Position numbers and translations under genes: made by a program
Notes under the pieces: model-generated
Told to the model about the DNA's origin: nothing
The model's input: the letters and a program-made list of their open reading frames with translations, nothing else
Databases searched by the model: none
Origin: Candidatus Omnitrophota bacterium
GTDB lineage: Bacteria; Omnitrophota; Gorgyraeia; Zapsychrales; Fredricksoniimonadaceae
Direction of reading: 5' to 3'
Assembly: GCA_903836515.1 (NCBI GenBank)
Contig: CAILQW010000005.1
Coordinates: 3,280 to 67,279 of the forward strand
DNA: 64,000 nucleotides
Part shown: in pieces, positions 27,840-62,500 of the stretch
Layout of the letters: each line of letters starts with the position of its first letter
Position numbering within the stretch: position 1 is the stretch's first letter

Positions 27840-27912
27840 CCGCGCTTAATTTGATAATAGCACTGTTCCCAATGATTTCCGTTCCTTCTTCGTCGGGAGA
27901 ACAAGAGATTTC

Positions 27913-33273: not shown

Positions 33274-33351
33274 AGGATATATTGAATTGTTGTCTTGAAG
33301 TCGATGGCGGCAAGATTTAACCCGCATTTTTCAATAGAAAGAGGCTGGAAG

Positions 33352-41200: not shown

Positions 41201-41535
41201 AACTCGCTTTTCGTCCGGCGCTCAAGGGGGCGTGGTTCACGCAGGCGGGTTCATCGGCCGAGATGTTCACCCTTGACGGCGAACGCCGGATGCTCGACCT
41301 GCCGGCGGATACCTATGCGTTCAATTTCATGGGACGGACACTGGTTGTATACCACAACAGCCGGCATGCCGACACGTTTGGCGCCCGTGCGGTCCTGCCG
41401 GTGCGCGTGACCCTGCGCTATGCCGCTGCCCACGGCGGGAAAAAACACGAGATCACCGGCGGCGTTATCCGGTCGCCCTACGCGGGCGATGTTCGTGAGG
41501 GCCGGGTGGAGCGCATCGACGTGGTGCTGGAGTAG
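38266..41535 (+). CDS. Large hypothetical protein (1089 aa), possibly a glycoside hydrolase/phosphorylase-like six-hairpin enzyme (tentative)
   Basis: Long uninterrupted ORF with no signal peptide. I recognise no domain confidently. A carbohydrate-active role is guessed only from adjacency to the deacetylase and a Trp/aromatic-rich composition. Confidence 0.55.
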   Translation: MKETAQSYLRQDGTFVIEDFNRRAPFANFFPGIAGAWGIPMWVFTTNRGQGIASFGIESKDKAIMEFQPANKAYRLTGTHGFRTFLKVKRGTAVKFYEPFRADAGTPFKIRQSMMITSHDLTIEEVNQTLGVAVTVNYFTMPEEPFAALVRMVTVRNLSKAAMSLEMIDGLPVIIPFGQNDWVMKHMCRTIEAWYKVRNLHKRAPYFQLDVEAADVPQVNHIKEGNFYFAFDPKAKPGVLLTPCVEAAAVFGQATDFTVPECFIAAKNYKVPVLQQTDNRTPCAMAHTTFPLRAGASKDVISLTGFARSVDELNANVKKATASGFVERKRAGNRALVEGVKSLAFTHSAHNAFNAYAGQTFLDNVMRGGLPVSLKTSAGPAVFNVYSRKHGDMERDYNFFKLSPTFLSQGNGNYRDVNQNRRNDVWFNPDLKDSAVVNFFSLTRADGYNPLIVCGMAFTPEDDGRINDLLGACVKSGDVTALATFLKKGFMPGDLFNFMADHDIRLKVTPRAFLARVLSECRKSETAQHGEGFWTDHWTYNLDLLESYLSLYPENLNAIFLGNKNFGFYHNGVYVQPRDKRYVLTARGVRQYHSLHEAHEDKNNTLRVSHGAGEVYRTSLLVKMLCLVANKAATLDPSGIGIEMEANKPNWYDSLNGLPGLLGSSISETFELKRAAAFVLAAFDRLALDGDASVLVFEELADFCEGLGGLLAQEHSDLHYWDKSNTLKEAYRVRIRQGISGGEKEVSFAFLRRLLEAVVVKADRAVAKAARPDGLFATYYVHEVVRHEMIDGVSPAKEGPHVRPLAFKRHDLPLFLEGFVHALRSEPDAARARELYRQVRKSPLFDRALGMYKLNTNITAESEEIGRTRVFPRGWLENESIWLHMEYKYLLELLRRGLFEEFYQDLATCCVPFMDPSRYGRSILENSSFIVSSAHTDPNLHGQGCVARLSGSTAEFTHMWMLMSAGLSPFTVSQGGALELAFRPALKGAWFTQAGSSAEMFTLDGERRMLDLPADTYAFNFMGRTLVVYHNSRHADTFGARAVLPVRVTLRYAAAHGGKKHEITGGVIRSPYAGDVREGRVERIDVVLE

Positions 41536-45894: not shown

Positions 45895-46532
45895 GGATCG
45901 AGGATCTTTCGTTTCAGGATCCGCAGGAAAATCTCGCTTATGATGACAGCCTGTTGGCAAGGGCCGATACAGGCACCGGTGGAGAAGTCCTCCGTTTCTG
46001 GGAGTCTGCAGCCTTCTTTGCGGTGCTGGGGCGGACTTGCGCCGCCGGGCAGGAGGTGGATGCCGCGGCGTGCACGCGCGCGGGGGTGAGCATCCTGCGC
46101 CGTTCCTCGGGCGGCGGCACGGTGTTGCAGGGCCCGGGCTGTCTTAATTTTTCCCTGGTTTTGGCCAAAACGCGCCATCCTGCGCTGGCGTCTATTTCCC
46201 AATCCTATGGTTTCATCCTTGACAAGGTTATCGCGGCGCTTGCCTCCTGCGGCGTGGAGGCATTTTTTCGTCCGGTCTGCGACCTTGTCCTGGGCCCGGG
46301 CGAGATGAAATTCTCCGGCAATGCCCAGCGGCGCGGGCGGGGGCATATCCTGCATCACGGGACCATCCTTTATGCCTTTGACCTCCCGCTCATCGGCGCA
46401 TGCCTTCACATGCCGCCGCGGATGCCTGAGTACCGACGCGGACGCCGCCATGAGGATTTTGTGGCCAATATTCACCTGGATGTCGGGCGTTTCAAACGTG
46501 CCCTGGGCCAGGCCTGGGGTGTTCTTGGATAA
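45891..46532 (+). CDS. Lipoate-protein ligase A family catalytic-domain protein (single BPL/LPL domain)
   Basis: 213 aa with the LplA-type motif RRSSGGGTVLQGPGCLNFSLVL. ATGA overlap with gcvPB. No C-terminal LplA accessory domain. Confidence 0.75.
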   Translation: MRIEDLSFQDPQENLAYDDSLLARADTGTGGEVLRFWESAAFFAVLGRTCAAGQEVDAAACTRAGVSILRRSSGGGTVLQGPGCLNFSLVLAKTRHPALASISQSYGFILDKVIAALASCGVEAFFRPVCDLVLGPGEMKFSGNAQRRGRGHILHHGTILYAFDLPLIGACLHMPPRMPEYRRGRRHEDFVANIHLDVGRFKRALGQAWGVLG

Positions 46533-46555
46533 GATTTTTTAAAGTTTTTTGAACC

Positions 46556-47842
46556 GTGGATGGTAAAATAATTTTTCAGGGAGGCTGCGTGCATTCATTG
46601 CGTCCAGGAAAGTTGTGGGTGAGTTGTGTGATGGCGGCCGCAGTGTTGCTGGGTCCTGTGCGCTTGCTGCCGGATGCGTCTGCCGCGTCTGCCGCACATG
46701 AAGCGTATCTGCCTTTTTTTGAAGAGGTTTACACCCTGATGCAGGAACATTACTTCTTTGAAGTTCAGCGTTCCGATTTTGACCGGTTCCTCGAACTTTT
46801 TGATGCGAAGATTTATCCCGATATCCTTCGCCAGCACAAGAGCGCGGATTTCATCCGCTGGCGTACAGCCGCCTACCTGGTCGACACGCTCAAACAGCCC
46901 GATGATCTTTTTTCGCGTTTTTTGCCGCCCAAACCGGCCGTACAGTTTGCGAAGGAAGTTTACGGAAAAAAGATCGACCTGGGCATCGAGGGCCATACGA
47001 TTACCGGGGGAATGGTGGTGGATTTCGTGGAGCCCCGATCGGATGCCTACGCCAAAGGGCTGCGGGAGAACGACCTTGTGGTACGTCTTGATCAGGAGGA
47101 TGTCCTGATCCTGGGCGATAAACGGATGAGGGACCGGCTCAATCCTCTGGAGGGCGGGCGGGTCCTGATCGATTATTTTTCCGGGCAGACGCGCGCGCCT
47201 CATGCCATCGAGGTGGTCAGCCGCGAATACTTCAAGCAGACCGTTTTTCTTGTGCCGACGGGTGTGCCGGGTATCTATTGTTTGCAGATCCGTAAATTCA
47301 ATCAGGGTACCCCGGAAGATTTCAGCCGGCTCCTGGACCAGATCAGGCTCAGGAACCCCAGGGGGCTTGTGCTTGACCTGCGGGATAATCCAGGCGGGCC
47401 GCCTTTGGCCGCACGGGCCATTGCCGCATTTTTTCTTCCCAATGGAAAAGGTCTCGTCTATTTCGAAGGCCGCCGCCGGCCCCGTGCCGATCTCGATATT
47501 CCGGTGATTCCTGGCATGCTTCAGGTAGATTGGCCCGTGGCCATCCTGGTCAACAAGGGGACGGGGAGTGCCGCCGAACTTTTCACCGGGGTCCTCCAGG
47601 ACAAGAAACGTGCGGTGGTCCTGGGCGAGCAGACGGCCGGGCAGGTGTTGTTAAAAAGCTTGTTTGATCTTTCCGACGGTTCGACGCTGGCCCTGGTTAA
47701 TGCCCGGGGGCATTTTCCGGATGGAAGGCCTTTTCCTTTTGATGGCGTTCGTCCCGACGAGAAGCTTTCCGGTGTCACGCAGGAGGCGGCGGTGGGCCTG
47801 GCGGCGAAGTATCTTTATCTGTCCAGGGGGGGCGTGAAATGA
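46556..47842 (+). CDS. S41 family C-terminal processing peptidase
   Basis: Motifs LVLDLRDNPGGP and VAILVNKGTGSAAELFTGVLQD (catalytic Ser region) with a PDZ-like middle region. An N-terminal hydrophobic signal is likely; the start is uncertain. Confidence 0.75.
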   Translation: MDGKIIFQGGCVHSLRPGKLWVSCVMAAAVLLGPVRLLPDASAASAAHEAYLPFFEEVYTLMQEHYFFEVQRSDFDRFLELFDAKIYPDILRQHKSADFIRWRTAAYLVDTLKQPDDLFSRFLPPKPAVQFAKEVYGKKIDLGIEGHTITGGMVVDFVEPRSDAYAKGLRENDLVVRLDQEDVLILGDKRMRDRLNPLEGGRVLIDYFSGQTRAPHAIEVVSREYFKQTVFLVPTGVPGIYCLQIRKFNQGTPEDFSRLLDQIRLRNPRGLVLDLRDNPGGPPLAARAIAAFFLPNGKGLVYFEGRRRPRADLDIPVIPGMLQVDWPVAILVNKGTGSAAELFTGVLQDKKRAVVLGEQTAGQVLLKSLFDLSDGSTLALVNARGHFPDGRPFPFDGVRPDEKLSGVTQEAAVGLAAKYLYLSRGGVK

Positions 47843-48555
47843 CGCTGCGGATCCTGGTGATCATTCCTGCGTTCAATGAAGCCGGCGCGATCGAAGGGAC
47901 GGTGCGCGAAGTGCTCGCCCAGAAGGTGCCGGTCACCGCCCTGGTGGTCGATGACGGGTCTTCCGACGCAACATCTGCGCGGGCTGCGGCAGCAGGGGCG
48001 CTTGTCGTCCGCCTGCCGTTTAATCTGGGGATCGGCGGGGCGGTGCAAACCGGTTATCGTTATGCCGCGGCGCACGGGTACGACATCGCCGTCCAGGTTG
48101 ACGGCGACGGGCAGCACGACCCTTCTTATCTGGGGGCGGTCATGGCGCCTGTGGCCGATGGGCGTGTCGACATGGCTGTGGGCAGCCGTTTTATCGATGG
48201 ACACGCGGGGTTCCGTTCGTCTGCCTCCCGGCGGATCGGCATCCGGTTTTTGGGCATCCTTATCCGTCTTCTGACGGGACGGCCCGTCACGGATCCGACA
48301 TCGGGATTTCGTGCCTGCGGCAGGAAGTTCATCGGCGTTTTCGCCGCGTATTACCCGACAGATTATCCTGAACCCGAAGCCATGGTCGTGGTGCACCGCC
48401 TGGGCGGGCGCTTTACGGAAGTGCCGGTCGTCATGCGTCCGCGGCGCAGCGGGGTCAGTTCCATTGCCCTGCTCAAGCCGCTGTATTATATGATCAAGGT
48501 CTCGGGGGCCATCCTGTTGCATACGTTAAAGAACAGAAAGGTGTATGAACCATGA
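47839..48555 (+). CDS. GT2 glycosyltransferase, polyprenyl-phosphate sugar synthase-like (DPM1/GtrB-like)
   Basis: N-terminus VIIPAFNEAGAIEGTV...VVDDGSSDAT...FNLGIGGAVQTGYRYA...VQVDGDGQHDP; 238 aa, the size of DPM1-like enzymes. Confidence 0.85.
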   Translation: MTLRILVIIPAFNEAGAIEGTVREVLAQKVPVTALVVDDGSSDATSARAAAAGALVVRLPFNLGIGGAVQTGYRYAAAHGYDIAVQVDGDGQHDPSYLGAVMAPVADGRVDMAVGSRFIDGHAGFRSSASRRIGIRFLGILIRLLTGRPVTDPTSGFRACGRKFIGVFAAYYPTDYPEPEAMVVVHRLGGRFTEVPVVMRPRRSGVSSIALLKPLYYMIKVSGAILLHTLKNRKVYEP

Positions 48556-48908
48556 CCATCCAATGGCTTGCGATCATCCTGGCATCCACGGTGTTTATGC
48601 TCGTGATCGAGCTTGTCCGCCGTGAAAAACTGACTTTCAAGTACGCTTTTGCCTGGCTTTTTCTGGCGGCCCTGGGGGTTGTTTGTTCCGTTTTCCGGGG
48701 GCTTCTTTTTTTTCTTTCCGATCTTTGCGGGTTTGCGCTGGCCAGTAATTTTATTTTCTTTGCCATTCTGTGCGGGTTTGTTTTCCTGAGTCTTCTGATG
48801 ACCGTTTTCCTTTGCCAGCAGAACAGGCGCAATGACCGCATGGTGCAGGCCCTCGGGCTGCTTGAGCTTGAGGTCAGGGGGTTGAAGGAGCGTGTCGATG
48901 GCCGATGA
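48552..48908 (+). CDS. DUF2304-like small membrane protein
   Basis: 118 aa with 3-4 TM helices. Translationally coupled between two GT2 genes, a frequent context for DUF2304. Confidence 0.6.
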   Translation: MTIQWLAIILASTVFMLVIELVRREKLTFKYAFAWLFLAALGVVCSVFRGLLFFLSDLCGFALASNFIFFAILCGFVFLSLLMTVFLCQQNRRNDRMVQALGLLELEVRGLKERVDGR

Positions 48909-49887
48909 CCCGCTGGTGAGCGTGATCATCCCCGCGTACAATGCGCAGGCAACCGTGGCGGCTGCCATCGAGGCCGTTACGGCCCAGCGGTGTACCGGCG
49001 GCGTGGAGCTGGTTGTGGTGGATGATGGGTCCACCGACGCAACCGGAGATATTGTCCGGCGTTATCCCGGCGTTCGCTATATTCGCCAGGATAATGCCGG
49101 TCCGGCGAGTGCGCGTAACCGCGGGGCCGGGGAGGCGCGCGGGGCATTTCTTTTTTTTACGGATGCCGATTGTCGTCCCCAGCCTGGATGGGTGGCGCGG
49201 ATGATGCAAGGGTTTGGCTGTGATGATGTTGCCGCCGTATCGGGAAGCTACGGCATCGTTAACCCCGGTTCCTGGCTGGCACGGATCATCCATGCGGAAA
49301 TCCGTTACCGCCATACCAGGCTCATGCCCCGCCATCCGTTTTTTTTCGGCAGTTACAATGTGGCTGTCAGGCACGATGTCTTTAGGCGCGCAGGCGGATT
49401 TAATGCCGTCTATCGCCGGGCGAGCGGGGAAGATAATGATCTCAGCTACAGGATCGTAGCGGCAGGCGGGCGGATTCTTTTTATGGCCGACGCTTGCGTG
49501 GATCATTATCATCAGGAATCTTTGGGGCGTTATCTTCGGGAGCAGTTCCGCCACGGGTTCTGGCGTGTGAAAATGTACCTGGACCATCCGCAGATGATGG
49601 CGGGGGATGGGTATACCTTCTGGAAAGATATTGTGGAAGTTCCCTGCGTCCTGGGGCACGGGCTGTTGTGGTGGGGCTGGCCCTGGCCCTGGCCCTGGCC
49701 GTTACCGGCGGCGGGATTGTTCTTTCTGTTTGAAGTATTCTTCGGTTCGATGCTGATGCGGTCTTTCGGGCCGGGGGCGGCGGCCGGGGGCGTGATGTGG
49801 CTGCGGGCCTTTGCGCGCACCGCGGGGTTTATTGCCGGCGGGGTTTTCTTTCTTAAAAAGATATTTTTAATGCCCAAGAAAATTTAA
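48892..49887 (+). CDS. GT2 glycosyltransferase with C-terminal membrane segment
   Basis: VSVIIPAYNAQATV...VVDDGSTDAT...FTDADC, with a C-terminal hydrophobic region. Contains a (TGGCCC)n microsatellite encoding WPWPWPWP. Confidence 0.8.
   Translation: MSMADDPLVSVIIPAYNAQATVAAAIEAVTAQRCTGGVELVVVDDGSTDATGDIVRRYPGVRYIRQDNAGPASARNRGAGEARGAFLFFTDADCRPQPGWVARMMQGFGCDDVAAVSGSYGIVNPGSWLARIIHAEIRYRHTRLMPRHPFFFGSYNVAVRHDVFRRAGGFNAVYRRASGEDNDLSYRIVAAGGRILFMADACVDHYHQESLGRYLREQFRHGFWRVKMYLDHPQMMAGDGYTFWKDIVEVPCVLGHGLLWWGWPWPWPWPLPAAGLFFLFEVFFGSMLMRSFGPGAAAGGVMWLRAFARTAGFIAGGVFFLKKIFLMPKKI
49688..49711 (+). repeat. Hexanucleotide microsatellite (TGGCCC) x3 plus TGGCCG inside the GT2 gene
   Basis: Read directly: tggccctggccctggccctggccg encodes W-P-W-P-W-P-W-P. 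Confidence 0.6.
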
Positions 49888-49985
49888 AAAAAACTTGCGG
49901 GGCATTGGCGCTATGTTAATATGAAACTGTTTCAGGATCAACAGGCAACGATTTCAAAAACAGGGAAAATTTTCTAATACCGACG

Positions 49986-50609
49986 ATGGCTAAGAAAGAA
50001 ACTGCAGAAGAAAAGCTGCTGAAAATCATCGAGGCCACCCAAAAGGCCAAAGAGGCCCCTGCATCGGCGACAGCCGCGGCCCCGGCTTCGGTCCCGGTTA
50101 AAAGAGCAGCCTCCCCTAAAATCATCATTTCATTCCGCCAGGTCAACACGGTTCTTGCCGTTGCCGCCCTGGCGGCGTTTATTTTTCTCGTGCATGAGGT
50201 CCAGCTCGGGCTGTCCCGTCTCAACGAAGATGTGAGCCTTTCCGTCGATCTTCCTGCGGTGAAAGACGCGGGAGGCCCTGCGGTGCCCCAGCTGAAAACG
50301 GCCGGCTGGTATCTCGACAAGGTCGCGGCACGCAATATTTTTCAACCTTACGAAAAAAGTTCTGCCGGCGGGCAGGGTGTCCCTTCGGATCGCGCCGCCC
50401 TGCAGACCAAGATAGGCAAGTATAAATTCGTCGGCGTGGCCTGGCTTGACGTCCCGGAATCGGCGACGGTGATGCTGGAGAATATTGCCACGAAAGAAAC
50501 CCGTTTCCTGAAAGAGGGCGACAAGATCGAGGATGTAACGGTCAAGACCATTTACACAGACAGGGCGGTCTTCAGTTACGCAAACGAGGAGATAACGATC
50601 AAGTTATGA
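49986..50609 (+). CDS. PilP/GspC-like secretin-associated inner-membrane protein (tentative)
   Basis: N-terminal charged region, one TM (VLAVAALAAFIFLV) and a C-terminal beta-sandwich-like segment (KYKFVGVAWLD...VMLENIATKETRFLKEGDKIEDVTVKTI...AVF) resembling PilP. Its ATGA stop/start overlaps the secretin gene. Confidence 0.5.
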   Translation: MAKKETAEEKLLKIIEATQKAKEAPASATAAAPASVPVKRAASPKIIISFRQVNTVLAVAALAAFIFLVHEVQLGLSRLNEDVSLSVDLPAVKDAGGPAVPQLKTAGWYLDKVAARNIFQPYEKSSAGGQGVPSDRAALQTKIGKYKFVGVAWLDVPESATVMLENIATKETRFLKEGDKIEDVTVKTIYTDRAVFSYANEEITIKL

Positions 50610-52204
50610 CAAACCACACACTTTCCCCCCGGAAGATCGTCCTGACACTGTTCGCGGGTATGGCGGCGGTGCTCGCCATCGCGGGATTTCGTCCCGCGGC
50701 CGCCGAAGAAGCGCAGACGCCCAGGCCGCTGATCATTTCCCAGCCGAAAGAATCTATCGACGAGCGCATGGCCCGCAAGATCGCCCTGGATGTCCGCGAC
50801 ATGAACATTGTGGATGTCCTCAAGTTTCTCGCCACGAAAGGCGAATTTAACGTGGTCATCAGCCCGTCGGTCGACGGACGCACGACAGTCCTCCTGGACA
50901 ATGTGGCCATCAAGGATGCCCTTGACATTGTGGTGATTTCCAGCCGCCTGGCGTACAGCATCCAGAACAATATTGTGCAGGTCATGACCGCCGCGGAGTA
51001 CGAGGGCATGTTCGGCAAGCAGTTCAGCGACAAGACCGTTGTGGCCACGTTCCGCCTGCAGTACGCCAAGCCGAGCTATGTCCTGGCGGCGCTCGACAAT
51101 ATGAAAAGCAATGTCGGGAAGATCATTATAGATGAAGATACCGGCGCGGTGGTCTTGATCGACACGCCTGATTCCATCGCCAAGATGAAAAAAGTGCTGG
51201 CCGACATTGAACAGCCGCTGGAAACGATCGTGTACAACCTGCAGTACGCCAAGGCGGATGTGGTCGCCGACAAGCTGCGCGCCAGGATCGACGCCAAGTC
51301 CGTGGGGTCGATCACGGCGGACGAGCGGTCGAACCAGCTGGTTGTCCGTGTGTTCCCCGGCCGCAAGGACGAGGTGGAGAAGATCGTCCGGCACCTGGAT
51401 GAGCCGACAAAAGAAGTGTTGATCGAGGCGCGGATCCTTCAGGTTATCTTCAAGCCCAGCTATGACGCAGGCATCGACTGGAATATCGCCTCCAGCGACA
51501 AGGCCAACCCCAACCTGCAGTTCAAGAATATTTACATGAATTCAAGCGGCATGAGCGCGACAGACAATCTTTCCACTACGTTCGGCCAGATTGCGGTGGG
51601 CAATATTAACGCGGACCGTTTCGCTCTTAATATCCGCGCGATGAAGCAGGTCAGCGATACCAAGCTTCTTTCGAATCCCAAGATCATGGCGGTTAACAAC
51701 GAGGAGTCCCGTATCCATATCGGCGATACGGTGCCCTATATCATTTCGACCGTGTCCGGCACCGGGGATAATGCTATCACCAGTGAAGATGTCCGTTTCA
51801 TCGATGTCGGCCTCAAGCTGAATGTGACCCCCACCATCAACGATGACGGGATGATCACCCTGAAACTCCGCCCCGAGATATCTTCTGTTGTTGGCAAACT
51901 TCAGTCGAAAAACAGCGGCGGTATCCCGCAAGTCAACAAGACAGAGGTGGAGACAACCCTTGTTGTCGAGGATGGCACGACCATCATCATGGCCGGCTTG
52001 CGTAAAGACGACAAGATCCACACCAAGACAGGTTTGCCCGTTCTCATGGACCTTCCTTACGTGAGCAAATTATTCAGCCGCGATTCCGACAGCATATCTT
52101 CGTCGGAGATCGTCATCTTCATTACACCGCATATTTTGACCGGCAAGGAAAATTACAAGGCGCCCGACGGGACCATCAAGCCGTCGAAGGCCTATAACAA
52201 GTGA
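50606..52204 (+). CDS. Secretin (GspD/PilQ family outer-membrane channel)
   Basis: Signal peptide, N-domains, and a C-terminal secretin domain (LLSNPKIMAVNNEESRIHIGDTVPY...FIDVGLKLNVTPTINDDGMITLKLRPEISSV...VLMDLPYVSKLFSRDSDSISSSEIVIFITPHIL). Confidence 0.85.
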   Translation: MTNHTLSPRKIVLTLFAGMAAVLAIAGFRPAAAEEAQTPRPLIISQPKESIDERMARKIALDVRDMNIVDVLKFLATKGEFNVVISPSVDGRTTVLLDNVAIKDALDIVVISSRLAYSIQNNIVQVMTAAEYEGMFGKQFSDKTVVATFRLQYAKPSYVLAALDNMKSNVGKIIIDEDTGAVVLIDTPDSIAKMKKVLADIEQPLETIVYNLQYAKADVVADKLRARIDAKSVGSITADERSNQLVVRVFPGRKDEVEKIVRHLDEPTKEVLIEARILQVIFKPSYDAGIDWNIASSDKANPNLQFKNIYMNSSGMSATDNLSTTFGQIAVGNINADRFALNIRAMKQVSDTKLLSNPKIMAVNNEESRIHIGDTVPYIISTVSGTGDNAITSEDVRFIDVGLKLNVTPTINDDGMITLKLRPEISSVVGKLQSKNSGGIPQVNKTEVETTLVVEDGTTIIMAGLRKDDKIHTKTGLPVLMDLPYVSKLFSRDSDSISSSEIVIFITPHILTGKENYKAPDGTIKPSKAYNK

Positions 52205-52232
52205 CCGTTAAATTCTTCGGGAGAGGTTCTCT

Positions 52233-53069
52233 ATGAGGCCAGCAAATTCTTGGAAGTTACCGACCATCTTCGCCGCGGCCGCGGGAGTGTTTTTGTTCTC
52301 GGCCCCTCTTGCTGTTGTTGCCGCTGGAGCCGAGGCCGGGGTCCAGAACGCCCAGGTGGATCCTGAATCCCTGAAGAAGGAGATCGAGCGCCTGAAGAAT
52401 GAAAAAGATTACGAGTCCAAACGGGTCGAGGAAATGCGCAGCGAGCGTGAAGAATTTGTCAAGGAGATCCGCCGTGCCGAGAGCCAGAATACCAAACAGA
52501 CCAAGGAGATCGATGGTCTGAAAACCGCCCTTTCCCAGCAGCAGGAATCGTTTGAGGCCCGGATGAAGAAATTCGAGACCGACCTTAAGGATTCCCAGGA
52601 TCTCGGGCAGAGGAAGGCTTCAGTGCAGCCGGCGCCCGGCAGTCGGCCGCCCAGTGCATCTTTTGCCGTTGAAAAGGCAGCCGGAGAGGTCCTGCAGAAG
52701 GGCGGCGACCTTGATCCCGAGGATGAAAAGTTCAAGGAAGAACTGGCCCGTGCCCATTACAACATGGGTAATGTCTATTACGAAAGAGGCGAGTATCAGC
52801 GTGCTGCTGTCGAATACTACCAGGCCGTGGACCTCATGCCGTATGATGCCGATGCGCATTACAACCTGGCGTATGTCAGCGGGGAATTCATCGGCGACCA
52901 GGATGCGGCGCTGAAGCATTATCAGTGGTACCTTTATTTGAAACCCCTGGCCGAAGACCGTAAACTTGTGGAGGAAAAGATCGTCAGCGCGAAACTGACT
53001 GTCCGAAGCCGTGTTGATTCCAGCCTGGACAAGCCTGAGCTTTCCGGCCATCAAAACGTGGCCAGATAA
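52233..53069 (+). CDS. Secreted coiled-coil plus TPR repeat protein (possible pilotin/secretin accessory)
   Basis: Signal peptide, an E/K-rich coiled coil, then TPR-like helices (ARAHYNMGNVYYERGEYQRAAVEYYQAVDLMPYDADAHYNLAYVS). Confidence 0.65.
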   Translation: MRPANSWKLPTIFAAAAGVFLFSAPLAVVAAGAEAGVQNAQVDPESLKKEIERLKNEKDYESKRVEEMRSEREEFVKEIRRAESQNTKQTKEIDGLKTALSQQQESFEARMKKFETDLKDSQDLGQRKASVQPAPGSRPPSASFAVEKAAGEVLQKGGDLDPEDEKFKEELARAHYNMGNVYYERGEYQRAAVEYYQAVDLMPYDADAHYNLAYVSGEFIGDQDAALKHYQWYLYLKPLAEDRKLVEEKIVSAKLTVRSRVDSSLDKPELSGHQNVAR

Positions 53070-53137
53070 AAGATCCTGATCTTTGTCGGAGCAAGCCTTT
53101 CCTTCTTGAGGAAAGGCGGGTGCACTAAAGGAGTGGT

Positions 53138-54718
53138 ATGAATATCAGAACGTCGGCGATCTTCGGGCTTGCGATTATTGTTGGTATTTTTTCACTTCCC
53201 GCCATTTCCCAGGCTAACGATCTTAAAGTATCCAATGTTCGCCTCGGTCCGCGTGATGCGAACGCAAAAACACTCGCGGTATTTTTCGATCTTTCCTGGC
53301 AGAATTCCTGGCGTAACAAGATCAATCATGATGCTGTCTGGGTGACGGTCCGCCTGCAGGATGCCCAGGCAGGTTCTTCCGAAAAGAAGCTGTGCCGCCT
53401 GTCGGTGAGCGGTCTTAACCCGTCCGGCACTTCTGCCGGTTCCAACAGTGACCTGGCCATCCAGGTACCCGCGGACAAAGCCGGGGCTTTTATCCGCCGT
53501 GTGGCCAATCATGCCACAGCTCCGGTCACAACAACCAGTGCCATGGTAACGGTTAATTACGACGCCTGTGGCCTGAGCGCGGCCAGCGAAGTGTCGGCCA
53601 CGCTGGTTGCCCTTGAAATGGTTTATGTTCCGCGCGGCGCATTTTATGCCGGCGATTATGCGGCGTCTCCCGCCGCGTTTCAGCGGGGCGGGGCGGACAA
53701 TAATCCCTGGCCCATCGCCAGCGAGTCCGCCATCAATGTCAGCGCGGCCTCGGCCAACGGATACTACTATGTTTCTGCCGGGAATGCCGGGGAGATGCCT
53801 TCGGCTGCCGCCTTTACGATCCCTGCCGCCTTCCCCAAGGGGTTTGATGCTTTTTATATGATGAAGTACGAGATCACGGAGGGCCAGTGGGTCGAGTTTG
53901 TCAACTCCCTGTCCTTTCCCGCACGTTCCCGGCGGGATGTGACCAATGCTTCCCACAAGAATTCCGATACGGTCATAGCGCGCGATGCCGTGGCATGCGC
54001 GGGATCGCCGCTTGTGTGCACCACCGACAGGCCTTACCGCGCCATGACCTTCCTGTCATGGCCGGACGTGTGTGCGTTCCTTGACTGGGCCGGGTTGCGC
54101 CCGATGACCGAGCTCGAGTTTGAAAAAGCGGCCCGCGGGCCCTTTCTTCCTGTCAACGGCGAATATGCCTGGGGGACGGCGGATATTCAGCCCGTGTCGG
54201 CTTTGTCCAGCGGGGCTGAAGAAGGCGGCGAACTGTCGGCAACGCCGGGCGCCAACGCGCGTTTCGACGGGATACTGCTTTCCGGGGGAGATGCTGCCGG
54301 CGGTTCTTCCTGTCAGGGCGGGCCGCTGAGAGTCGGTATTTTTGCCACGGATGCCTCGAACCGCATATCTTCCGGTGCCGGTAATTACGGGGCCATGGAA
54401 CTTTCTGGAAATGTCAAGGAGTGGACCGTATCCGTGGGCCATTCTGCCGCGCTGGCCTATACCGGGGTTAATGGTGATGGTGCTTTGACCACAACCACGG
54501 GTTTTGAAGGCAATGCGGATACGGCGTTGTGGCCCGGGATGGATGTGGATGCCAGCCATGGCGTGATACATGCCGCCGGAGCCGGGTTTCGCGGCGGCTC
54601 ATGGGCCGATCCGTCCGCCCGTTTGGCGATTTCGGATCGTACGGAAGCGGCGTCCTCCGCTACTGATGCCGCGGCGACCTATGGCGGTCGCGGTGTCCGT
54701 TCGGCGGAAGGCCAGTAA
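53138..54718 (+). CDS. Secreted FGE-sulfatase (SUMF1/formylglycine-generating enzyme) domain protein, paralog 1
   Basis: Signal peptide, a unique N-terminal domain of about 180 aa, then FGE-domain motifs (LEMVYVPRGAFYAGD; YMMKYEITEGQWVEFV; TFLSWPDVCAFLDWAGLRPMTELEFEKAARG; FRGGSWAD). Confidence 0.8.
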   Translation: MNIRTSAIFGLAIIVGIFSLPAISQANDLKVSNVRLGPRDANAKTLAVFFDLSWQNSWRNKINHDAVWVTVRLQDAQAGSSEKKLCRLSVSGLNPSGTSAGSNSDLAIQVPADKAGAFIRRVANHATAPVTTTSAMVTVNYDACGLSAASEVSATLVALEMVYVPRGAFYAGDYAASPAAFQRGGADNNPWPIASESAINVSAASANGYYYVSAGNAGEMPSAAAFTIPAAFPKGFDAFYMMKYEITEGQWVEFVNSLSFPARSRRDVTNASHKNSDTVIARDAVACAGSPLVCTTDRPYRAMTFLSWPDVCAFLDWAGLRPMTELEFEKAARGPFLPVNGEYAWGTADIQPVSALSSGAEEGGELSATPGANARFDGILLSGGDAAGGSSCQGGPLRVGIFATDASNRISSGAGNYGAMELSGNVKEWTVSVGHSAALAYTGVNGDGALTTTTGFEGNADTALWPGMDVDASHGVIHAAGAGFRGGSWADPSARLAISDRTEAASSATDAAATYGGRGVRSAEGQ

Positions 54719-54750
54719 CACTTTTTCAACCTTTAACCCCGAACAGACCT

Positions 54751-56379
54751 ATGCTAAAAAAAATCATTTTTTCGACCGTTGCCTGCGCATTGATTTCTTT
54801 TCCCGCTTTCGCCAACAACCTCCAGCTCAATCATTTTGATCTCTACGCTTCGGAGGCCTCCGCGCACCGGATGACCTTTACGCTGGATATCCGTCAGGAC
54901 AACAGCTGGCGCAGCGCGGCGTCCCATGATGCGGTGTGGATTTTTATGAAGTACTCCACGGATGCGGGACAGACATGGCATCACGCCAGCATGGGTGGCA
55001 TCGGCCTTAACCCGTCGGGGTTTGCAAGCCCCCAGGGATTCGAGATCCTTGTTCCCGCCGACATGAAAGGGTTCTTTTTTCGCCGGGCCGATATTCTGAC
55101 GGGGGCCCTGGATGCCAAGGCGGTTCATTTTGTGTGGAACTACGCGCAGGACGGTATTTCCGACGATACAGCCAATGCGGCCAATACCCTGACAAAGGTT
55201 TTTGGGCTCGAGATGGTTTATATCCCTGAAGGGGCTTTCTTTGCCGGTGACGGGGCGAGCGCGTCCCCCTTCCGTTTCAAGCAGGGGAGTGCGGATGACA
55301 GCCCGTGGTATATTTCCAGCGAGAATGCGATCACGACGACCAATACCGCTTCGGCTGGATTTTATTATCAGTCGACCGGGGCGTCCGGCGAGAATCTGTC
55401 GGGGGACGTGTTTTTGGTGCCCAACTCTTTTCCCAAGGGATATAAGGCTTTTTACCTGATGAAGTATGAGCTGACCGAGGGGGAGTGGACTGAATTTTTC
55501 AATGCCCTTTCTGCGGCAGCCAAAGCGACCCGCGATATCACAGCCTCCCTCAATGGCGGCAAGAATTCAACCGGTGTGGTTGACCGCAATACGGTGGCCT
55601 GGGATCCCGTTTATCCGTCACGCCCTGCGGTCACGATGCGTCCTTCCCGCGCGATGAGCTATATTTCCTGGCCTGATGCGGCGGCGTATGCGGATTGGGC
55701 CGGCCTGCGCCCCATGACGGAACTTGAGTTTGAAAAGGCGGCGCGGGGGGTGGATGTCAATTCCGTTACAGACGAATTTGCTTGGGGGAGTGCCAGTTAC
55801 AGCGCTGCCACCGCTGACCAGATATTTCCCGCCAATCAGGATGAGAATGGCACCGAAGCGGTTTTGAATGGAGCGGCCAATCTTAACCGGAATGCCCTGG
55901 GATGGACTTCCGGTGACGGGCGTCCCGGCGGGGCGGCGGAAGGTCAGAAGGGTCCTTTGCGTGCCGGAATTTTTGCGGAAAATTCGACAGCCCGCGTGAC
56001 CAGCGGCGGCGGATATTACGGCGCCATGGAACTTTCGGGAAATCTCGCCGAGCCGGCCGTCACGGTGGGCCGCGCGGAAGGCCGCCAGTTTTTAGGCTCC
56101 CACGGGGATGGCGAACTTTCAACGATATCAGGACATGAGGGGAATGCTACCAATGTGGATTGGCCCGGCATTGACGTTTCCGATGCGCGGCGCGGGGTGG
56201 ACAGGACGCTGGGGATCGGGTATCGCGGCGGCGATTTCCAGTCTGCCAGCATCCGCGATTTTCAGGTATCCGCGCGCAGTTTTGCCGCGAAAGATCCTGA
56301 CAGCGCGGGGTTTAAACAGCGCCACGATGCATCTTCCGGCATTTATTATGGCGCGCGCCTGGCCCGCACGGCCCCGTGA
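54751..56379 (+). CDS. Secreted FGE-sulfatase domain protein, paralog 2 (tandem duplicate)
   Basis: Same architecture as paralog 1 and about 45-50% identical by eye (LEMVYIPEGAFFAGD; YLMKYELTEGEWTEFF; SYISWPDAAAYADWAGLRPMTELEFEKAARG; YRGGDF). Confidence 0.8.
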   Translation: MLKKIIFSTVACALISFPAFANNLQLNHFDLYASEASAHRMTFTLDIRQDNSWRSAASHDAVWIFMKYSTDAGQTWHHASMGGIGLNPSGFASPQGFEILVPADMKGFFFRRADILTGALDAKAVHFVWNYAQDGISDDTANAANTLTKVFGLEMVYIPEGAFFAGDGASASPFRFKQGSADDSPWYISSENAITTTNTASAGFYYQSTGASGENLSGDVFLVPNSFPKGYKAFYLMKYELTEGEWTEFFNALSAAAKATRDITASLNGGKNSTGVVDRNTVAWDPVYPSRPAVTMRPSRAMSYISWPDAAAYADWAGLRPMTELEFEKAARGVDVNSVTDEFAWGSASYSAATADQIFPANQDENGTEAVLNGAANLNRNALGWTSGDGRPGGAAEGQKGPLRAGIFAENSTARVTSGGGYYGAMELSGNLAEPAVTVGRAEGRQFLGSHGDGELSTISGHEGNATNVDWPGIDVSDARRGVDRTLGIGYRGGDFQSASIRDFQVSARSFAAKDPDSAGFKQRHDASSGIYYGARLARTAP

Positions 56380-56529
56380 CTATTTTTATCCGACGGAGAT
56401 CTGCTTTTTCCGGTCGTTTTTCTTCAGCCTGGAATCATGGGAAAAAATTCTTAGAATTTCATTGAAGTCCAGTGCGATAATTCAGATAATGTACTCATCG
56501 ATGCCACCGTTTCATAACGATTCCTGGTA

Positions 56530-59500
56530 ATGAGAATAAATAAAAGACTGAAATTTATTCAACAGACATGGTTGCGTTGTGCCGTTACACTTATTATTAA
56601 TATCTTAATAAGTGGGCTGGCGGCAACGTATGCGCATGCCCAGTTTTCCGGCGGCGCGGAGAACGGCAATGCCACAGCCACCATTGGCAGCGATATTTTT
56701 ACAGGCGGCGCCCAGAACGGCACCACCAGCGCCACCTCCGGCAGCAACGGATCCCTTTCCTACGGGGATGCCACCCACATCGCCTTTTTGGTAACCCCTT
56801 CCAGCATCAAGCATGGCAATACCTTCGAACGTCAGCCGGTTGTGGCGGTGTTGGATGCCAGCGGCAATGTTGTGGCGGGCGATAATTCCACCCGCATTTC
56901 TCTCGCCATTCAGAACAATCCCGGTGCCGGAACATTAAACGGCACAACCTCTGTCACGGTTGTCCATGGTCTGGCGGCATTCACAGATCTTGGCATCACG
57001 CGTGCCGGCAATCTTTACACGATCATCGCGCGGGCCGACGGGCTGGGCAGCGCGGTTTCGGATGCCTTTGATGTTTTTGCGGGAACCGGCGCGAAGTTTG
57101 CGGCCATATGGGATGCGTCCCAGACGGCTTATTACATTTACAGCTGGATCGAGACGGACGGCCAGCGGCAGCCCATTACAACATCCAATGCCTATTGCAT
57201 GCCGCATCAAATCTGGAGATCTTCTTCAGGCACCCTTGTTTCCGAGAAAGCGGCCTGGACGCCGACAGTTGATGATGACAAAAACTGGTGTTTCAGCTCC
57301 GGCAGCAAATGGACGCCCAGCAACAGGGACGATTCTTATTTTATTTCTTTCGGGATCAACTGGGATGGCGGTCCTTTCGATGCCTACTCCTCCCTTGAGA
57401 TCACGGCCATGAATATTGCCGGCGTCAACTGGGATGACATTGCCGCGATGAAAGGCAAGATCGATGCGGTCAACTGGCAAAATATCGATGACATGGCCAA
57501 GTCGGATATCAACTGGGATGACGTGGCCCACATGGCTGCTGCGGCCGTGAACTGGGAATACCTGGGCGTCCTGCGTTCCGACATTGTGGACATCAAGAAT
57601 GTCACCGACCAGATGAGCGGGATCAACTGGACCAGTGCCAGGGACATGACCAATGCCGGGATCCAGTGGGCGGATGTCAGCGCCATGACCGCGGCGGGCA
57701 TCAACTGGGATGACCTGTACGCCATGACGCGCCAGGGGGTGAACTGGCAGGATATCGGCATTTTGTCATCGATTGGCATCAACTGGGACGATATCGGTGT
57801 TTTCTCCCAGGCCGCTGTCAACTGGTATGACATTGCCCGGCTCGCCGGGGTGGGTATCAACTGGCAGGATATTTCGGAACTGGCCGGCGCAGGCATCAAC
57901 TGGTACGACCTTGATGCGTTGTCTGTCGCCGGGGTGAACTGGACGGATCTCGCCATCATGACCGGGGCCGGGGTTAACTGGCCCGATCGTGTCAATTGGG
58001 ACAATCTGGCGGAACTCACCACAGCGAATATCAACTGGGACGACCTGACCGTCATGTCCGAGCAGGGCCTGAACTGGTATGACCTTGATGTGCTTACCGA
58101 GGCCGGGATCAACTGGAATGATCTTAACGCGCTGACGGTGGCCGGTATCAATTGGTATGACATCGAAGCCATGAGCACGGGCGGGGTGAACTGGAGTGAT
58201 ATCCAGGTCTTGTCCGCGGCGGGCGTCAACTGGCAGGATGTGAATGTGTTGACCCTTATCGCGGTCAACTGGAGCGATATCCAGGCGATGTCAGCAGCCG
58301 GGGTGAACTGGAATGATGTGGGGGAACTTTCCGCAGCCGGGGTGAACTGGAATGATATGGAGGCTTTGTCGCTCGCCGGGCTCAACTGGTCTGATATGAG
58401 CGCCTTTTCCCAGGCGCAGATCAACTGGAATGACATCCAGGCGTTTACCTCCGCCGGGGTGAACTGGAATGATCTTGGCGCCATGGCGGCCGCGGGTGTT
58501 AACTGGGATGATGTCCAGGCCCTGACCCATGTGGGTGTGAATTGGCAGGATATTGAGGCCTTGGGCGGGGCGGGGATCAACTGGGCCGATATCGGGCTCT
58601 TGTCCGCGCAAGGGGTGAACTGGTCGGATGTGGGATCGTTGACCGCCGCAGGCATCAACTGGGATGATGTGCAGGCCATGACCCGGATCGGCATGAACTG
58701 GTCGGATATGTCCGCTTTGTCTGCCGCCGGTGTCAATTGGTCGGATCTTGCCGGACTTTCCACCCGTGCGGTAAATTGGACGGATATACAGGCGCTGACC
58801 GCAGCAGGCATGAATTGGGACGACCTCCAGGCATTTTCCGCCGCGGGGATCAACTGGCAGGACATTCAGGTCCTGACAACCACTGCGGTCAATTGGGATG
58901 ATATTCAGGTTTTGTCTGCCGCGGGTGTTAATTGGTCGGATATTCAGGCTTTCACTAATATAGGGGTCAATTGGAATGATATCAGCCGGATGGCTGCTGC
59001 CGGTGTGAATTGGGATGATGTTCAGAGTCTTTCTGTAACCGGCGTCAATTGGACGAATCTTGCGGTGATGGGTGCGGCCGGGATCAATTGGGAAGATGTC
59101 AATACCCTGACCACGCGCGGCATTAACTGGGATAATGTCGAGGTGTTTGCCGCCGCCGGGATCAACTGGTCGGATGTGCAGACACTGACAGTCGCCGGTG
59201 TGAACTGGGATGATATTCAGCGGATGAGTATCAGCACCGTCAATTGGGATGATATGGCCGTGTTGTCTTCCACGGGCATCAACTGGGATGATCTTGCCAC
59301 GCTGTCCGGCAAGGGCGTCAATTGGGATGATCTTCTCGCGTTGACGTCCAAGGGTATCAACTGGGATAATCTGGCGGTCATGGCCGCTGACGGGATCAAC
59401 TGGACCGATATCGGGCGCATGGCCGGCGAAGGTATTAATTGGAGTGATATCGCCGTTTTCACGGTGGCTGGTGTCAACTGGGAGGATGTCGCTGTCCTTT

Positions 59501-62500
59501 CGGCTACGGGTGTCAATTGGCATGATATCGGCGTGTTCACGGCCGAGGGGATTAACTGGGGCGATATCCAGGCGTTGGCCGCGGCCGGCGTGAACTGGAC
59601 TGACGTCGGGGCCATGACTGCTGCCGGCGTCAACTGGGACGATATCGTTACCATTTCCCGAAAGGCGGTCAACTGGGATGATGTGACAGCCCTGTCTTCT
59701 GCCGGGGTTAACTGGACGGATATCCAGGAGATGTCCCAGCGCGGCGTCAACTGGGATGATGTTGCTGTCCTGGCCCGCACGGGTGTGAATTGGGACGATA
59801 TCGCGGTGCTGGCGTCGCGCGGCGTGAATTGGGACGATGTTCAGCATTTGGCGGCGTCAAATGTGAATTGGGATGATATTGGCCGACTGACAGTTACAGG
59901 TGTGAACTGGGACGATCTCTACAGCCTGTCGGTCAAGGGGGTCAACTGGGATGATGTCCTTGTCCTGACCAACGCCGGCGTGAACTGGGCGGATATAGGT
60001 GATCTGTCGTCGCGTGGTGTTAATTGGTCCGATATTGCCCGCATGGCCGATGCCGGGATCAACTGGGATGATGCACAGGCCTTGACCGCGGTCGGGGTGA
60101 ATTGGCACGATGTGGCTGTGTTGACAACCGCCGGATTGAACTGGTCGGATGTGAATGCCATGGCCTCAGCGGGTGTTAACTGGGGGGATATCGCCCTCCT
60201 GAGCGCGACGGGGGTCAACTGGGACGATGTCCAGGCCATGGCCGCCAAAGGTGTCAACTGGGATGGGCTGGCAAGCCTCGCGGCCGCTGGGGTCAACTGG
60301 ACGGATATTTCTGTGTTAGCAGCAACCGGAGTGAACTGGTCTGATGTCAATGCCATGACTGTGGCCGGGGTCAATTGGGATAACCTGACATCCATGACCA
60401 CATCCGGGGTGAATTGGGCGGATCTGACAACGCTGACATGGGCGCAGGTCAATTGGGATGATGTGAGTGCGCTTTCCGCGAAAGGTGTCAACTGGACAGA
60501 TCTCGGGGCCATGAGTGCGGCGGGGATAAACTGGCTGGATATCAGCACGTTGGCGGTTGCAGGTGTTAACTGGGATGACCTTCATGTCCTTTCCCAGGGT
60601 GGCATCAACTGGTCTGATATCGAGGTGTGGTCCGCTGCTGGTGTGAACTGGGCTGACATCGGGGCTGTAAGCGTGGCGGGTGTTAACTGGATGGATATCC
60701 AGGTGTTGACCAGCGCAGGTGTCAATTGGAGCGACCTGGAACGATTGGGTGTTAGCGGTGTTAACTGGGATGATCTGGCTGTTCTGGCCGGGACAGGTGT
60801 CAACTGGCTCGATCTTCAGTCGTTCACCATCGCCGGGATCAATTGGAACGACCTCGCGGTCCTTACAGCCAATAATGTGAACTGGGATGATATTACACGT
60901 CTTTCTGCCGCGGGTGTGAACTGGGAAGATGTGGGTACCATGGCGGCCTCCGGTCTCAATTGGGAAGATATTCAGCAAATGACCGCCAAGGGGATTAATT
61001 GGACGGATATCGCCGCGTTCACATCTTCTTCTATTAATTGGGCTGATCTGCAGGTACTGGCGGGGACGGGTGTTAACTGGAATGATATCCAGGTCCTCTC
61101 GCTGCAGGGTGTGAACTGGGTGGACATCGGGGGGCTTGCCGCCGCAGGGATCAACTGGACAGATCTCCAGGCGCTCGCATCAACGGGAGTGAACTGGAGC
61201 GATATCAGCGTCATGTCCGTGCAGGGGGTCAATTGGGATGATATTAATACCCTTTCCACGCGCGGGGTGAACTGGGAGGATGTGGCTGTCCTCGCGGGTA
61301 AAGGTATTAATTGGAATGATATCCAGGCATTGTCGTTGAGCGGCCTTAACTGGTTTGATATGGAGGCCATGACAACAGCGGGCGTGAACTGGGATGATCT
61401 CCAGGCCATGGCCGGCAAAGGCGTGAACTGGGATGACATCCAGGTCCTGAGCGGACGCGGTATCAATTGGGTCGATGTTGATACGCTTTCCAAGGCGGGC
61501 GTTAACTGGTCTGATATCGTGGCGTTGAGCACAACGGGTGTGAATTGGAACGATCTTGAAGTTTTAGCGGCAGCGGGTGTGAACTGGGAGAACCTCCAGT
61601 CACTGGCCGGCACAGGGATTAACTGGGACGATATCCAGGTGCTCTCCGTCCGCGGGATCAACTGGGATGATATTGTGGCCATGTCGCAGGGGGGCGTGAA
61701 CTGGTCGGATATCGGCGCGCTTTCCTTGGCCGGGGTGAATTGGAATGATATGGGGCTGTTGGCGCAGGCCGGTGTGAACTGGGCTGATATTGATGCTATG
61801 ACGACCGTTGCCGTGAACTGGGATAACGTTCAGGCGATGTCCGTGGCAGGGATCAACTGGGCCGATGCCGGTGCCTTAACCACGGCCGGCGTCAACTGGA
61901 CCGACATGAATGTGCTGACCGCTGCGGGAGTTAACTGGGCCGATGTGGGCGCCCTCAGCGCGGCGGGAGTGAACTGGGGCGACATCAACACACTGACCGC
62001 GGCCGGGGTGAATTGGGCGGATGTCAGTGCCTTGGCGGGGGCCGGCATTAATTGGGCAGATGTAGGTTCCTTGAGTGCCGTCGGGGTGAACTGGTTTGAT
62101 GTGAGTGCCCTCACGGTGGCGGGCGTGAACTGGGATAATATTCAGCTGATGTCTGCGGCCGGTGTCAACTGGGATAATGTGACGGTGATGGGGACTTCCG
62201 GTGTGAACTGGGCGGATATTGCGGCCTTGAGTGCGGCAGAGGTCAACTGGTCGGATGTCAATGCGCTTACGGCGGCCGGGGTCAACTGGAGCGATATTGG
62301 CATATTAAGCGATGCCGCTGTGAATTGGGACAATGTGCAGGTGCTTTCCATCGCGGGTGTTAACTGGGACGACCTTAATGTGATATCCCGGACCGGTGTG
62401 AACTGGACGGATATCGGTGCCCTGAGCGAGGCGGGCGTGAACTGGGCCGATGTAAATGCCTTGACGGTGGCGGGCATGAACTGGGACAGCCTGCAGTCAC

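Follow-up and report, generated by a model that had tools for sequence, protein, structure and literature searches.

A conserved secretin module of Omnitrophota as the probable outer-membrane half of a split type II secretion-like system

Three open reading frames (ORFs) on the plus strand of a Candidatus Omnitrophota genome encode a 207-aa protein ending in an HR domain (the HR protein), a 532-aa secretin and a 278-aa protein with tetratricopeptide repeats (the TPR protein). They lie at 49986-53069 of the 64,000-nt stretch of DNA analysed here (the window), exactly the coordinates given in an earlier note on this sequence, which had described them as an orphan module. We consider it likely that the module is the outer-membrane half of a split type II secretion-like system, a member of the type IV filament superfamily, whose remaining parts are encoded downstream of a giant gene. 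The secretin is probably not truly orphaned and probably only looks so because of where the window ends.

Conserved gene order and the downstream cluster in relatives

Among the best 120 homologues of the secretin, which are 60-91% identical to it, nearly all of the named ones are from Omnitrophota. A genome scan with the secretin, limited to one genome per GTDB species, yielded 80 loci (54-91% identity), all of which appear to be from Omnitrophota, though some of the records are labelled "uncultured Planctomycetales". Searches with tblastn and gene calls placed the module in a block that is collinear in about 80 Omnitrophota species and reads gcvT-gcvP1-gcvP2-lipB-S41-GT2-DUF2304-GT2-(AAA_22 ATPase)-HR protein-secretin-TPR-(two FGE genes)-repeat protein, where FGE denotes the formylglycine-generating enzyme fold and brackets mark genes of variable occurrence. 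The HR protein, secretin, TPR protein and repeat protein are the core that is always present; the FGE genes and the ATPase vary. The window has the same flanks according to Pfam, with glycine-cleavage genes, a lipoate-ligase-like gene, an S41 peptidase and a GT2-DUF2304-GT2 cassette upstream of the module, and two FGE-sulfatase-domain proteins downstream, followed by a repeat ORF of more than 2490 aa that reaches the window end. This agrees with the earlier note, which had located the secretin between a GT2 cassette and the FGE/mega-repeat genes.

Profile scans of the window covered ORFs of at least 200 aa, leaving out small ORFs, and among them no homologues of GspE/PilB, GspF/PilC or PilM/N/O were found, so that a short pilin gene is still possible. 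Searching the window by tblastn with GspE, GspF and GspG of a relative gave no match, and no motor, platform or pilin partners were found within 10 kb on either side of the module in about 80 related species.

Further downstream, partner genes were observed directly in relatives. Only two relatives have a complete, short repeat gene: L087/L023 (contig JACQCF010000020.1 of assembly GCA_016201795.1), whose secretin is 70% identical to that of the window and in which the ATPase adjacent to the module is also missing, and L073, which belongs to a clade at 59% identity. On a single strand, L087 encodes the HR protein, the secretin, the TPR protein, two FGE-like proteins, an 868-aa orthologue of the repeat protein and a 435-aa signal-peptide protein, and continues with the F-type ATPase subunits alpha, epsilon and c, a 75-aa protein, and the subunits delta, gamma and beta, after which come GspE/PilB, GspF/PilC and a pseudopilin. 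Its GspE scores 559 bits against TIGR02533 and carries an MshEN domain, its GspF scores 318 bits against TIGR02120, and its pseudopilin has a classic GspG N-terminus. In L073, the repeat protein is followed by a homologue of the 435-aa protein and by F-type ATPase alpha, where the fetched sequence ends.

A metagenome scan with the GspF of the relative returned only four distant loci, among them L088 and L090. The latter is an ordinary contiguous GspD-E-F-G cluster of another organism and was set aside. L088 opens with the end of a long protein, the last residues of which resemble the C-termini of the short repeat proteins, and continues with a protein like the 435-aa one, the F-type ATPase set, GspE, GspF, GspG (which at 155 bits exceeds its cut-off of 88.85), two minor pseudopilins, proteins resembling GspK, GspL (a PilM/PilN fusion) and GspM, a 227-aa protein, a Rotamase_2 peptidyl-prolyl isomerase (PPIase) and a MarR regulator. 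Neither a secretin nor GspC is present in the L088 cluster as read, and the 227-aa protein, tried as a hidden HR/GspC protein, gave a negative profile comparison.

The F-type ATPase genes between the repeat protein and GspE lie at 13933-19336 in L087, 20310-21503 in L073 and 2100-8063 in L088. They are always separated from the repeat protein by the conserved signal-peptide protein of about 300-435 aa, which has no family match (L087 12610-13917; L073 18877-20127; L088 1105-2031). Against the model of the Mycoplasma gliding ATPase MMOB1660, the alpha subunit scores 396 bits (cut-off 600).

The downstream cluster thus lacks a secretin and GspC, which are exactly the parts that the module supplies, and this complementarity supports the reading of one split system. 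The earlier claim of an orphan without ATPase, pilins or inner-membrane platform stands for the window and for the 10 kb around the module in about 80 species, and it fails in relatives, where L087 encodes GspE, GspF and GspG downstream. Partner genes just beyond the analysed region, which the earlier note had named as grounds for giving up its orphan claim, are found in this position in L087, and L088 shows the remainder of that cluster; for the genome of the window we infer the same downstream order.

A further component is present in part of the group. The gene of an AAA_22 ATPase of about 300 aa stands immediately before the HR gene, but only in clades with a secretin at most 67% identical to that of the window (L001 8436-9350, L003 8488-9390 and L085 8163-9098). 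Its best family match is TIGR03015, at 181-196 bits and below the cut-off of 324.5, a model which we take to group with the GspA/ExeA/MshM ATPases. This GspA/MshM-like ATPase has neither a transmembrane segment nor a peptidoglycan-binding domain. The ATPase is missing between 49887 and 49986 of the window and has no homologue anywhere in its 64 kb; the cytoplasmic N-terminal motif of the HR protein is still conserved there despite the missing ATPase. An ATPase beside a protein with a transmembrane helix and an HR domain is the gspA-gspB arrangement of type II secretion systems (T2SS; PMC9239104).

The three module proteins

The secretin gene (50606-52204, plus strand) encodes a signal peptide, an N0 domain, two N1-type domains and a secretin domain, as judged from Pfam, NCBIfam, PDB, AlphaFold2 (AF2) and Foldseek. 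The earlier note had called the secretin C-domain unambiguous, and it is: Pfam Secretin (PF00263) matches the 532-aa protein at E=3e-46 and 157.6 bits (cut-off 27.5) over positions 1-168 of the 169 in the profile. Secretin_N matches in two stretches (E=1.8e-21), and the STN/N0 match is weak. In the AF2 monomer, a model of modest quality (pLDDT 65), N0 spans residues ~58-128, the N1-type domains 145-201 and 206-264, and the barrel 270-511. Past the barrel the chain has only some 20 residues left, too few to form an S-domain.

GspD proteins have N0, N1, N2 and N3 periplasmic domains and a C-terminal S-domain for the pilotin, and one or more N-terminal AMIN domains are a feature of PilQ. The modelled secretin has N0 and two N1-type domains only, in place of the GspD layout with its S-domain, and no AMIN domain was detected with Pfam. 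Its NCBIfam scores are 247.8 bits to PilQ (TIGR02515; subfamily cut-off 284.35), 222.9 bits to GspD (TIGR02517; equivalog cut-off 351.35) and 174 bits to MshL (cut-off 250), each below the respective threshold. In the PDB, the sequence is matched best by XcpQ/GspD (127 bits) and PilQ (119 bits) and weakly by phage pIV (64 bits). Foldseek ranks the T2SS secretins ExeD, GspD, PulD, EpsD and XcpQ before PilQ, with E=2e-23 to ExeD, GspD and PulD. The protein is a divergent secretin between the GspD and PilQ families. Lone copies of the secretin, 57-61% identical and without partner genes, were seen at L059 9896-11521 and L086 5537-7138. The former is a second copy in a genome that also holds the standard locus (L027) and lies between a heptosyltransferase and malic enzyme, and the latter adjoins a two-component system.

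The gene of the HR protein (49986-50609, plus strand) overlaps the secretin gene by 4 bp in the window and by 4-20 bp in relatives, and the 4-bp overlap suggests translational coupling. A promoter and terminator scan of 46000-57500 gave counts no higher than in shuffled sequence. Alignment, AF2, Foldseek and weak Pfam and NCBIfam matches describe the product as a bitopic inner-membrane protein. Across 50 aligned homologues, the near-invariant N-terminal motif MAKKETAEEKLLKIIE, a hydrophobic helix and a strongly conserved stretch of 65 C-terminal residues are kept. The AF2 model has a helix at 7-22, a transmembrane helix at ~50-80 and a six-stranded domain at 146-206 (pLDDT >90).

Sequence matches of the HR protein are weak: T2SSB at E=0.006, GspC_delta at E=5e-4, PF16537 at 16.6 bits (cut-off 28.4) and the GspC family model NF041515 at 19.8 bits (cut-off 150). 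Some homologues carry a precomputed PF11356 T2SSC match, and a PDB sequence search with the profile of the protein gave chance matches only, the best being Rpb4 at E=0.44. The structure is more telling. Foldseek matches the C-terminal domain to LspC (E=3.5e-3), to the GspC HR domain crystallised with GspD N0-N1 (3oss_C; TM-score 0.77, root-mean-square deviation 2.0 Å), to the PulC HR domain in the PulD complex (6hcg_e; TM-score 0.74) and to PilP (2y4y; TM-score 0.66). At the level of the predicted fold, the protein has the GspC architecture of an N-terminal transmembrane helix and an HR domain, and the transmembrane-plus-HR architecture of GspB/OutB is also present. Its chain stops after the HR domain, without the PDZ or coiled-coil domain of GspC, and contains no cysteine that could form the lipobox of PilP. 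The earlier description of this protein as PilP/GspC-like was therefore apt for the modelled fold, a GspC/PilP-type HR domain behind a transmembrane helix, and the kinship appears at that level only; the protein falls below every family cut-off and belongs to no single family. GspC, PilP and GspB/OutB all use the HR fold to bind N0 of their secretins, and the transmembrane-plus-HR proteins OutB/GspB both bind N0 and pair with GspA ATPases (PMC9239104).

The third gene (52233-53069, plus strand) follows the secretin gene in nearly all of the ~90 related loci with enough downstream sequence. Pfam TPR matches and a weak PilW match describe its 278-aa product as a periplasmic accessory protein with a hydrophobic N-terminus (a signal peptide or an anchor), a coiled coil, about three TPRs (TPR_11 at E=2.4e-10, behind the coiled coil) and a conserved C-terminal tail. 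Its length varies from 166 to 640 aa across the related loci, along with the coiled coil. The PilW match is at E about 7e-6 and 25.7 bits (cut-off 154), the orthologue in L003 matches Tgl at E=1e-6, and the Tgl scores are 19.8-28.3 bits (cut-off 225). PilF, PilW and Tgl pilotins are outer-membrane lipoproteins with about six TPRs, and the 278-aa protein lacks these features and scores below their cut-offs. As the earlier note had said, it has no lipobox cysteine. The HR protein, the secretin and the TPR protein in fact contain no cysteine at all, so none of the three can be a lipoprotein.

By analogy with T2SS and type IV pili, the parts may work together as follows. A secretin multimer would form the outer-membrane channel, and the HR domain would dock on its N0 ring, as in GspC, GspB and PilP, and tie the ring to the inner membrane. 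The conserved N-terminal helix of the HR protein would contact a cytoplasmic partner, namely the GspA-like ATPase in those relatives that have it and perhaps the platform in the others. The TPR/coiled-coil protein may assist the assembly of the secretin or brace it in the periplasm. Transport would be driven by the GspE/PilB motor, the platform of GspF and the GspL-/GspM-like proteins, and the GspG pseudopilus, all encoded downstream. In the window's genome, the genes of the motor, platform and pseudopilins would come after the repeat protein, the 435-aa protein and the F-type ATPase set, beyond the window end. The most likely cargo or surface-exposed partner of the secretin is the repeat protein, a candidate by adjacency, as it carries a Sec signal peptide and is always encoded between the two halves.

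The giant repeat protein, the FGE-like pair and other genes of the window

The repeat gene (56530-64000, plus strand) is an open frame to the window end and encodes a giant secreted protein of more than 2490 aa within the window. After a Sec signal peptide and an Ig-like N-terminal region, the protein repeats a 13-residue G[VI]NWxD[IL] unit in tandem at least 169 times. The NW-to-NW spacing is exactly 13 in 162 of 168 cases. Pfam gives only spurious matches to Lysostaphin_N and CW_7 repeats. Short orthologues that are complete have a coiled coil near the end and share the C-terminal motif ...QDVVVK[AT][WY][YF]ES(G)E. All related loci have an orthologue after the TPR or FGE genes, and the gene runs off the fetched sequence in 50 of 62. 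Every assembly of the window's lineage, among them the 68,013-bp contig that is the probable source of the window, stops inside the repeat gene, the longest contig ending after 2718 aa of it. A search with the N-terminal 700 aa returned mostly fragments, the repeats swamping the word index, and three matches from it were set aside as assembly fragments or unrelated loci. Several long ORFs on the minus strand at 57384-63998 (for example 57384-58865 and 58291-59847) lie wholly inside the repeat gene and most likely represent shadow ORFs produced by the repeats rather than genes.

Between the TPR gene and the repeat gene, the window encodes two secreted paralogues with the FGE-sulfatase fold, about 43% identical and cross-matching in tblastn: the 526-aa FGE-like 1 (53138-54718, plus strand; Pfam FGE-sulfatase E=2.3e-14) and the 542-aa FGE-like 2 (54751-56379, plus strand; Pfam E=2e-12). 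True formylglycine-generating enzymes have a catalytic cysteine pair C-terminal to a GNVWEW motif. FGE-like 1 aligns to the FGEs of the PDB over the core motif only, with GNVKEW at ~424-429, and has no cysteine past residue 392; the sole cysteine of FGE-like 2 is within its signal peptide. The catalytic pair is thus present in neither, and FGE-like 1 is probably non-catalytic. The pair is missing from the most distant loci, and in L073 three paralogous signal-peptide proteins of ~190 aa (13016-14839) stand in its place. The FGE-fold proteins are clade-restricted accessories.

Upstream of the module, the window holds a second group of very large envelope proteins (17964-35112, plus strand). It includes a 3291-aa protein with hints of DUF11 and Big_6, a 1786-aa TPR protein and a 605-aa AsmA-like protein with weak similarity to GspN (T2SSN E=0.005; TIGR04411 E=0.002). 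A 1089-aa protein without a Pfam match (38266-41535, plus strand) is kept upstream of gcvT in relatives and gives a partial match to the model of GH149 beta-1,3-glucan phosphorylase (111 bits against a cut-off of 1150).

Comparison with known systems and alternative explanations

Of the known systems, T2SS with GspD/GspC and GspA/GspB (ExeA/ExeB, OutB) resembles the locus in having a secretin with N0 and N1-type domains and an adjacent bitopic HR-fold protein. The ATPase of the relatives is directly upstream, as gspA is beside gspB, and the downstream partners are GspE-, F-, G-, K- and M-like. The locus departs from T2SS in several respects. Its secretin has three N-domains rather than the four of GspD, no S-domain and a score of 223 against 351 bits, and its HR protein has neither the PDZ/coiled-coil domain of GspC nor the C-terminal peptidoglycan-binding extension of OutB. 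The ATPase of the relatives has no transmembrane segment or peptidoglycan-binding domain, and beside the module of the window it is missing altogether. The two halves are moreover split by a gene of 2.6 to ~15 kb (868 to ~4,900 aa) and an F-type ATPase operon.

The MSHA pilus, taken with its commonly known gene order, shares a secretin (mshL), a P-loop ATPase of the GspA/MshM family (mshM), a TPR protein (mshN) and an MshE-type ATPase with a cyclic di-GMP-binding MshEN domain. It differs in the MshL score (174 against 250 bits) and the gene order, no MshI/J/K were seen, and the major pilin is GspG-like, not MshA-like. PilP-PilQ of the type IVa pilus, together with a TPR pilotin (PilF/PilW/Tgl), is matched by the HR-fold protein beside the secretin, the TPR accessory and the PilM/PilN-like platform downstream. 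Nevertheless, PilP and the TPR pilotins are lipoproteins whereas their counterparts in the module are cysteine-free, the secretin has no AMIN domain, and the PilW/Tgl scores are 20-28 bits against 154-225. The S-layer systems of Aeromonas have a dedicated secretin, SpsD/ApsE, beside the gene of the surface-array protein. The likeness is by description only, in that a secretin gene adjoins the gene of one very abundant or large surface protein with putative export, and the candidate cargo of the module differs in being a repeat fibre.

Omnitrophota themselves have been surveyed for such genes. Type-4a pilus clusters are reported to occur in nearly all Omnitrophota, and in many of them to adjoin a non-respiratory F-type ATPase related to the Mycoplasma type 2/3 ATPases (Seymour et al. 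2023, PMC10066038). A second study describes T2SS-like loci, including a Rotamase_2 PPIase, near giant genes; in its locus, gspD/E/F and rcpC occur together among more than 10 genes that precede far larger ones (West-Roberts et al. 2023, bioRxiv 10.1101/2023.11.21.568195). These clusters and ours share the phylum, GspE/F/pilin genes beside an F-type ATPase that looks non-respiratory, and the Rotamase_2 PPIase at the cluster end. In the sections consulted, neither text describes the secretin-HR-TPR-FGE block or a 3-5 thousand-residue NW-repeat protein as the upstream part of the cluster, and a literature search on Omnitrophota with secretin/pilQ found no paper describing the module. The general picture is thus already known, and the HR-secretin-TPR-FGE-repeat layout upstream of a T2SS-like cluster is an addition to it.

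The same genes can be read differently. The module could be the PilQ-type secretin subcomplex of a true type IVa pilus for prey attachment or twitching, with no protein secretion and with the repeat protein a mere neighbour. The top NCBIfam score of the secretin is indeed to the PilQ subfamily (248 bits), the HR fold matches PilP too, the downstream ATPase scores equally well as PilB (551-557 bits) and has the cyclic di-GMP-binding MshEN N-domain, the platform protein is a PilM/PilN fusion, and Seymour et al. class such clusters as type-4a pili (PMC10066038). However, the major pilin encoded downstream exceeds the equivalog cut-off of GspG, the cluster includes GspK- and GspM-like genes, and GspF outscores PilC. 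No AMIN domain was matched in the secretin, for which Foldseek ranks T2SS secretins before PilQ, the HR protein is not a lipoprotein, and the retraction ATPase PilT was not seen in the stretches read. On balance, a true type IVa pilus seems unlikely. An autonomous device, in which the HR protein, secretin and TPR protein (with or without the GspA-like ATPase) export or anchor the repeat protein without a pseudopilus and the downstream T2SS-like genes are unrelated, would account for the invariance of the triad and the repeat protein in ~80 species while FGE genes and ATPase come and go, for the existence of lone secretin copies and for the F-type ATPase genes that stand between the module and GspE. 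To our knowledge, though, no secretin moves folded cargo without an inner-membrane motor, be it in T2SS, type IV pili, type III secretion systems or filamentous phage, and the downstream cluster lacks exactly a secretin and GspC, with all genes of L087 co-directional; we therefore regard such a device as quite improbable. Export of an exopolysaccharide would fit the GT2-DUF2304-GT2 cassette directly upstream and the match of the relatives' ATPase to the PEP-CTERM-associated ATPase model TIGR03015 (181-196 bits), but that match is below the 324.5-bit cut-off, and no exosortase, Wza/Wzc or polymerase genes were found. A filamentous prophage remnant sits poorly with the weak pIV match (64 bits) and with a stable chromosomal block in ~80 species that has no phage genes. 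On these grounds both were rejected as very improbable readings of the module.

Several points weigh against the split type II secretion-like system that we favour. GspE, GspF and GspG were seen on the same contig as the secretin once, in L087, and the secretin-less downstream cluster was seen on L088 only, which is distant, has no assigned taxon and has its upstream region outside the sequence read. The assemblies of the window's lineage stop in the repeat gene, short of the position where the partner genes would lie. The partner evidence consists of locus sequences, not genome-wide counts of secretins or of T2SS and type IV pilus genes. The score of the secretin reaches the equivalog cut-off of neither GspD nor PilQ, and partnerless copies of it exist (L059, L086). 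Finally, the upstream gcv genes, lipB and the S41 peptidase are as conserved in order as the downstream genes, and collinearity alone is thus no proof of functional linkage.

Omnitrophota are ultra-small, uncultured and probably predatory or parasitic, and a role in prey contact is suspected for both their giant proteins and their pilus- or secretion-like systems. It is conceivable, if rather doubtful, that the whole locus is one machine comprising the GspA-like ATPase, the HR protein, the secretin, the TPR protein, the FGE pair, the 3-5 thousand-residue NW-repeat fibre, the 435-aa protein, the F1Fo-like ATPase and the E-M genes. The secretin would then be the port that deploys, and possibly moves, the fibre for prey attachment or gliding, powered by the filament ATPase and the non-respiratory F-type ATPase. 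A parallel is Mycoplasma mobile, in which an F1-like ATPase is coupled to the giant Gli surface proteins.

The cluster beside the unusual F-type ATPase lacks an outer-membrane half, which the conserved secretin block appears to provide, and a repeat fibre of ~0.9 to 5 thousand residues can be named as the candidate cargo. The secretin found across the phylum, the giant fibre, the F-type ATPase and the T2SS-like cluster are linked in this way into a single, testable locus map. For genome scans, the lesson is that very long repeat genes break assemblies and windows and can make components that belong together appear orphaned.

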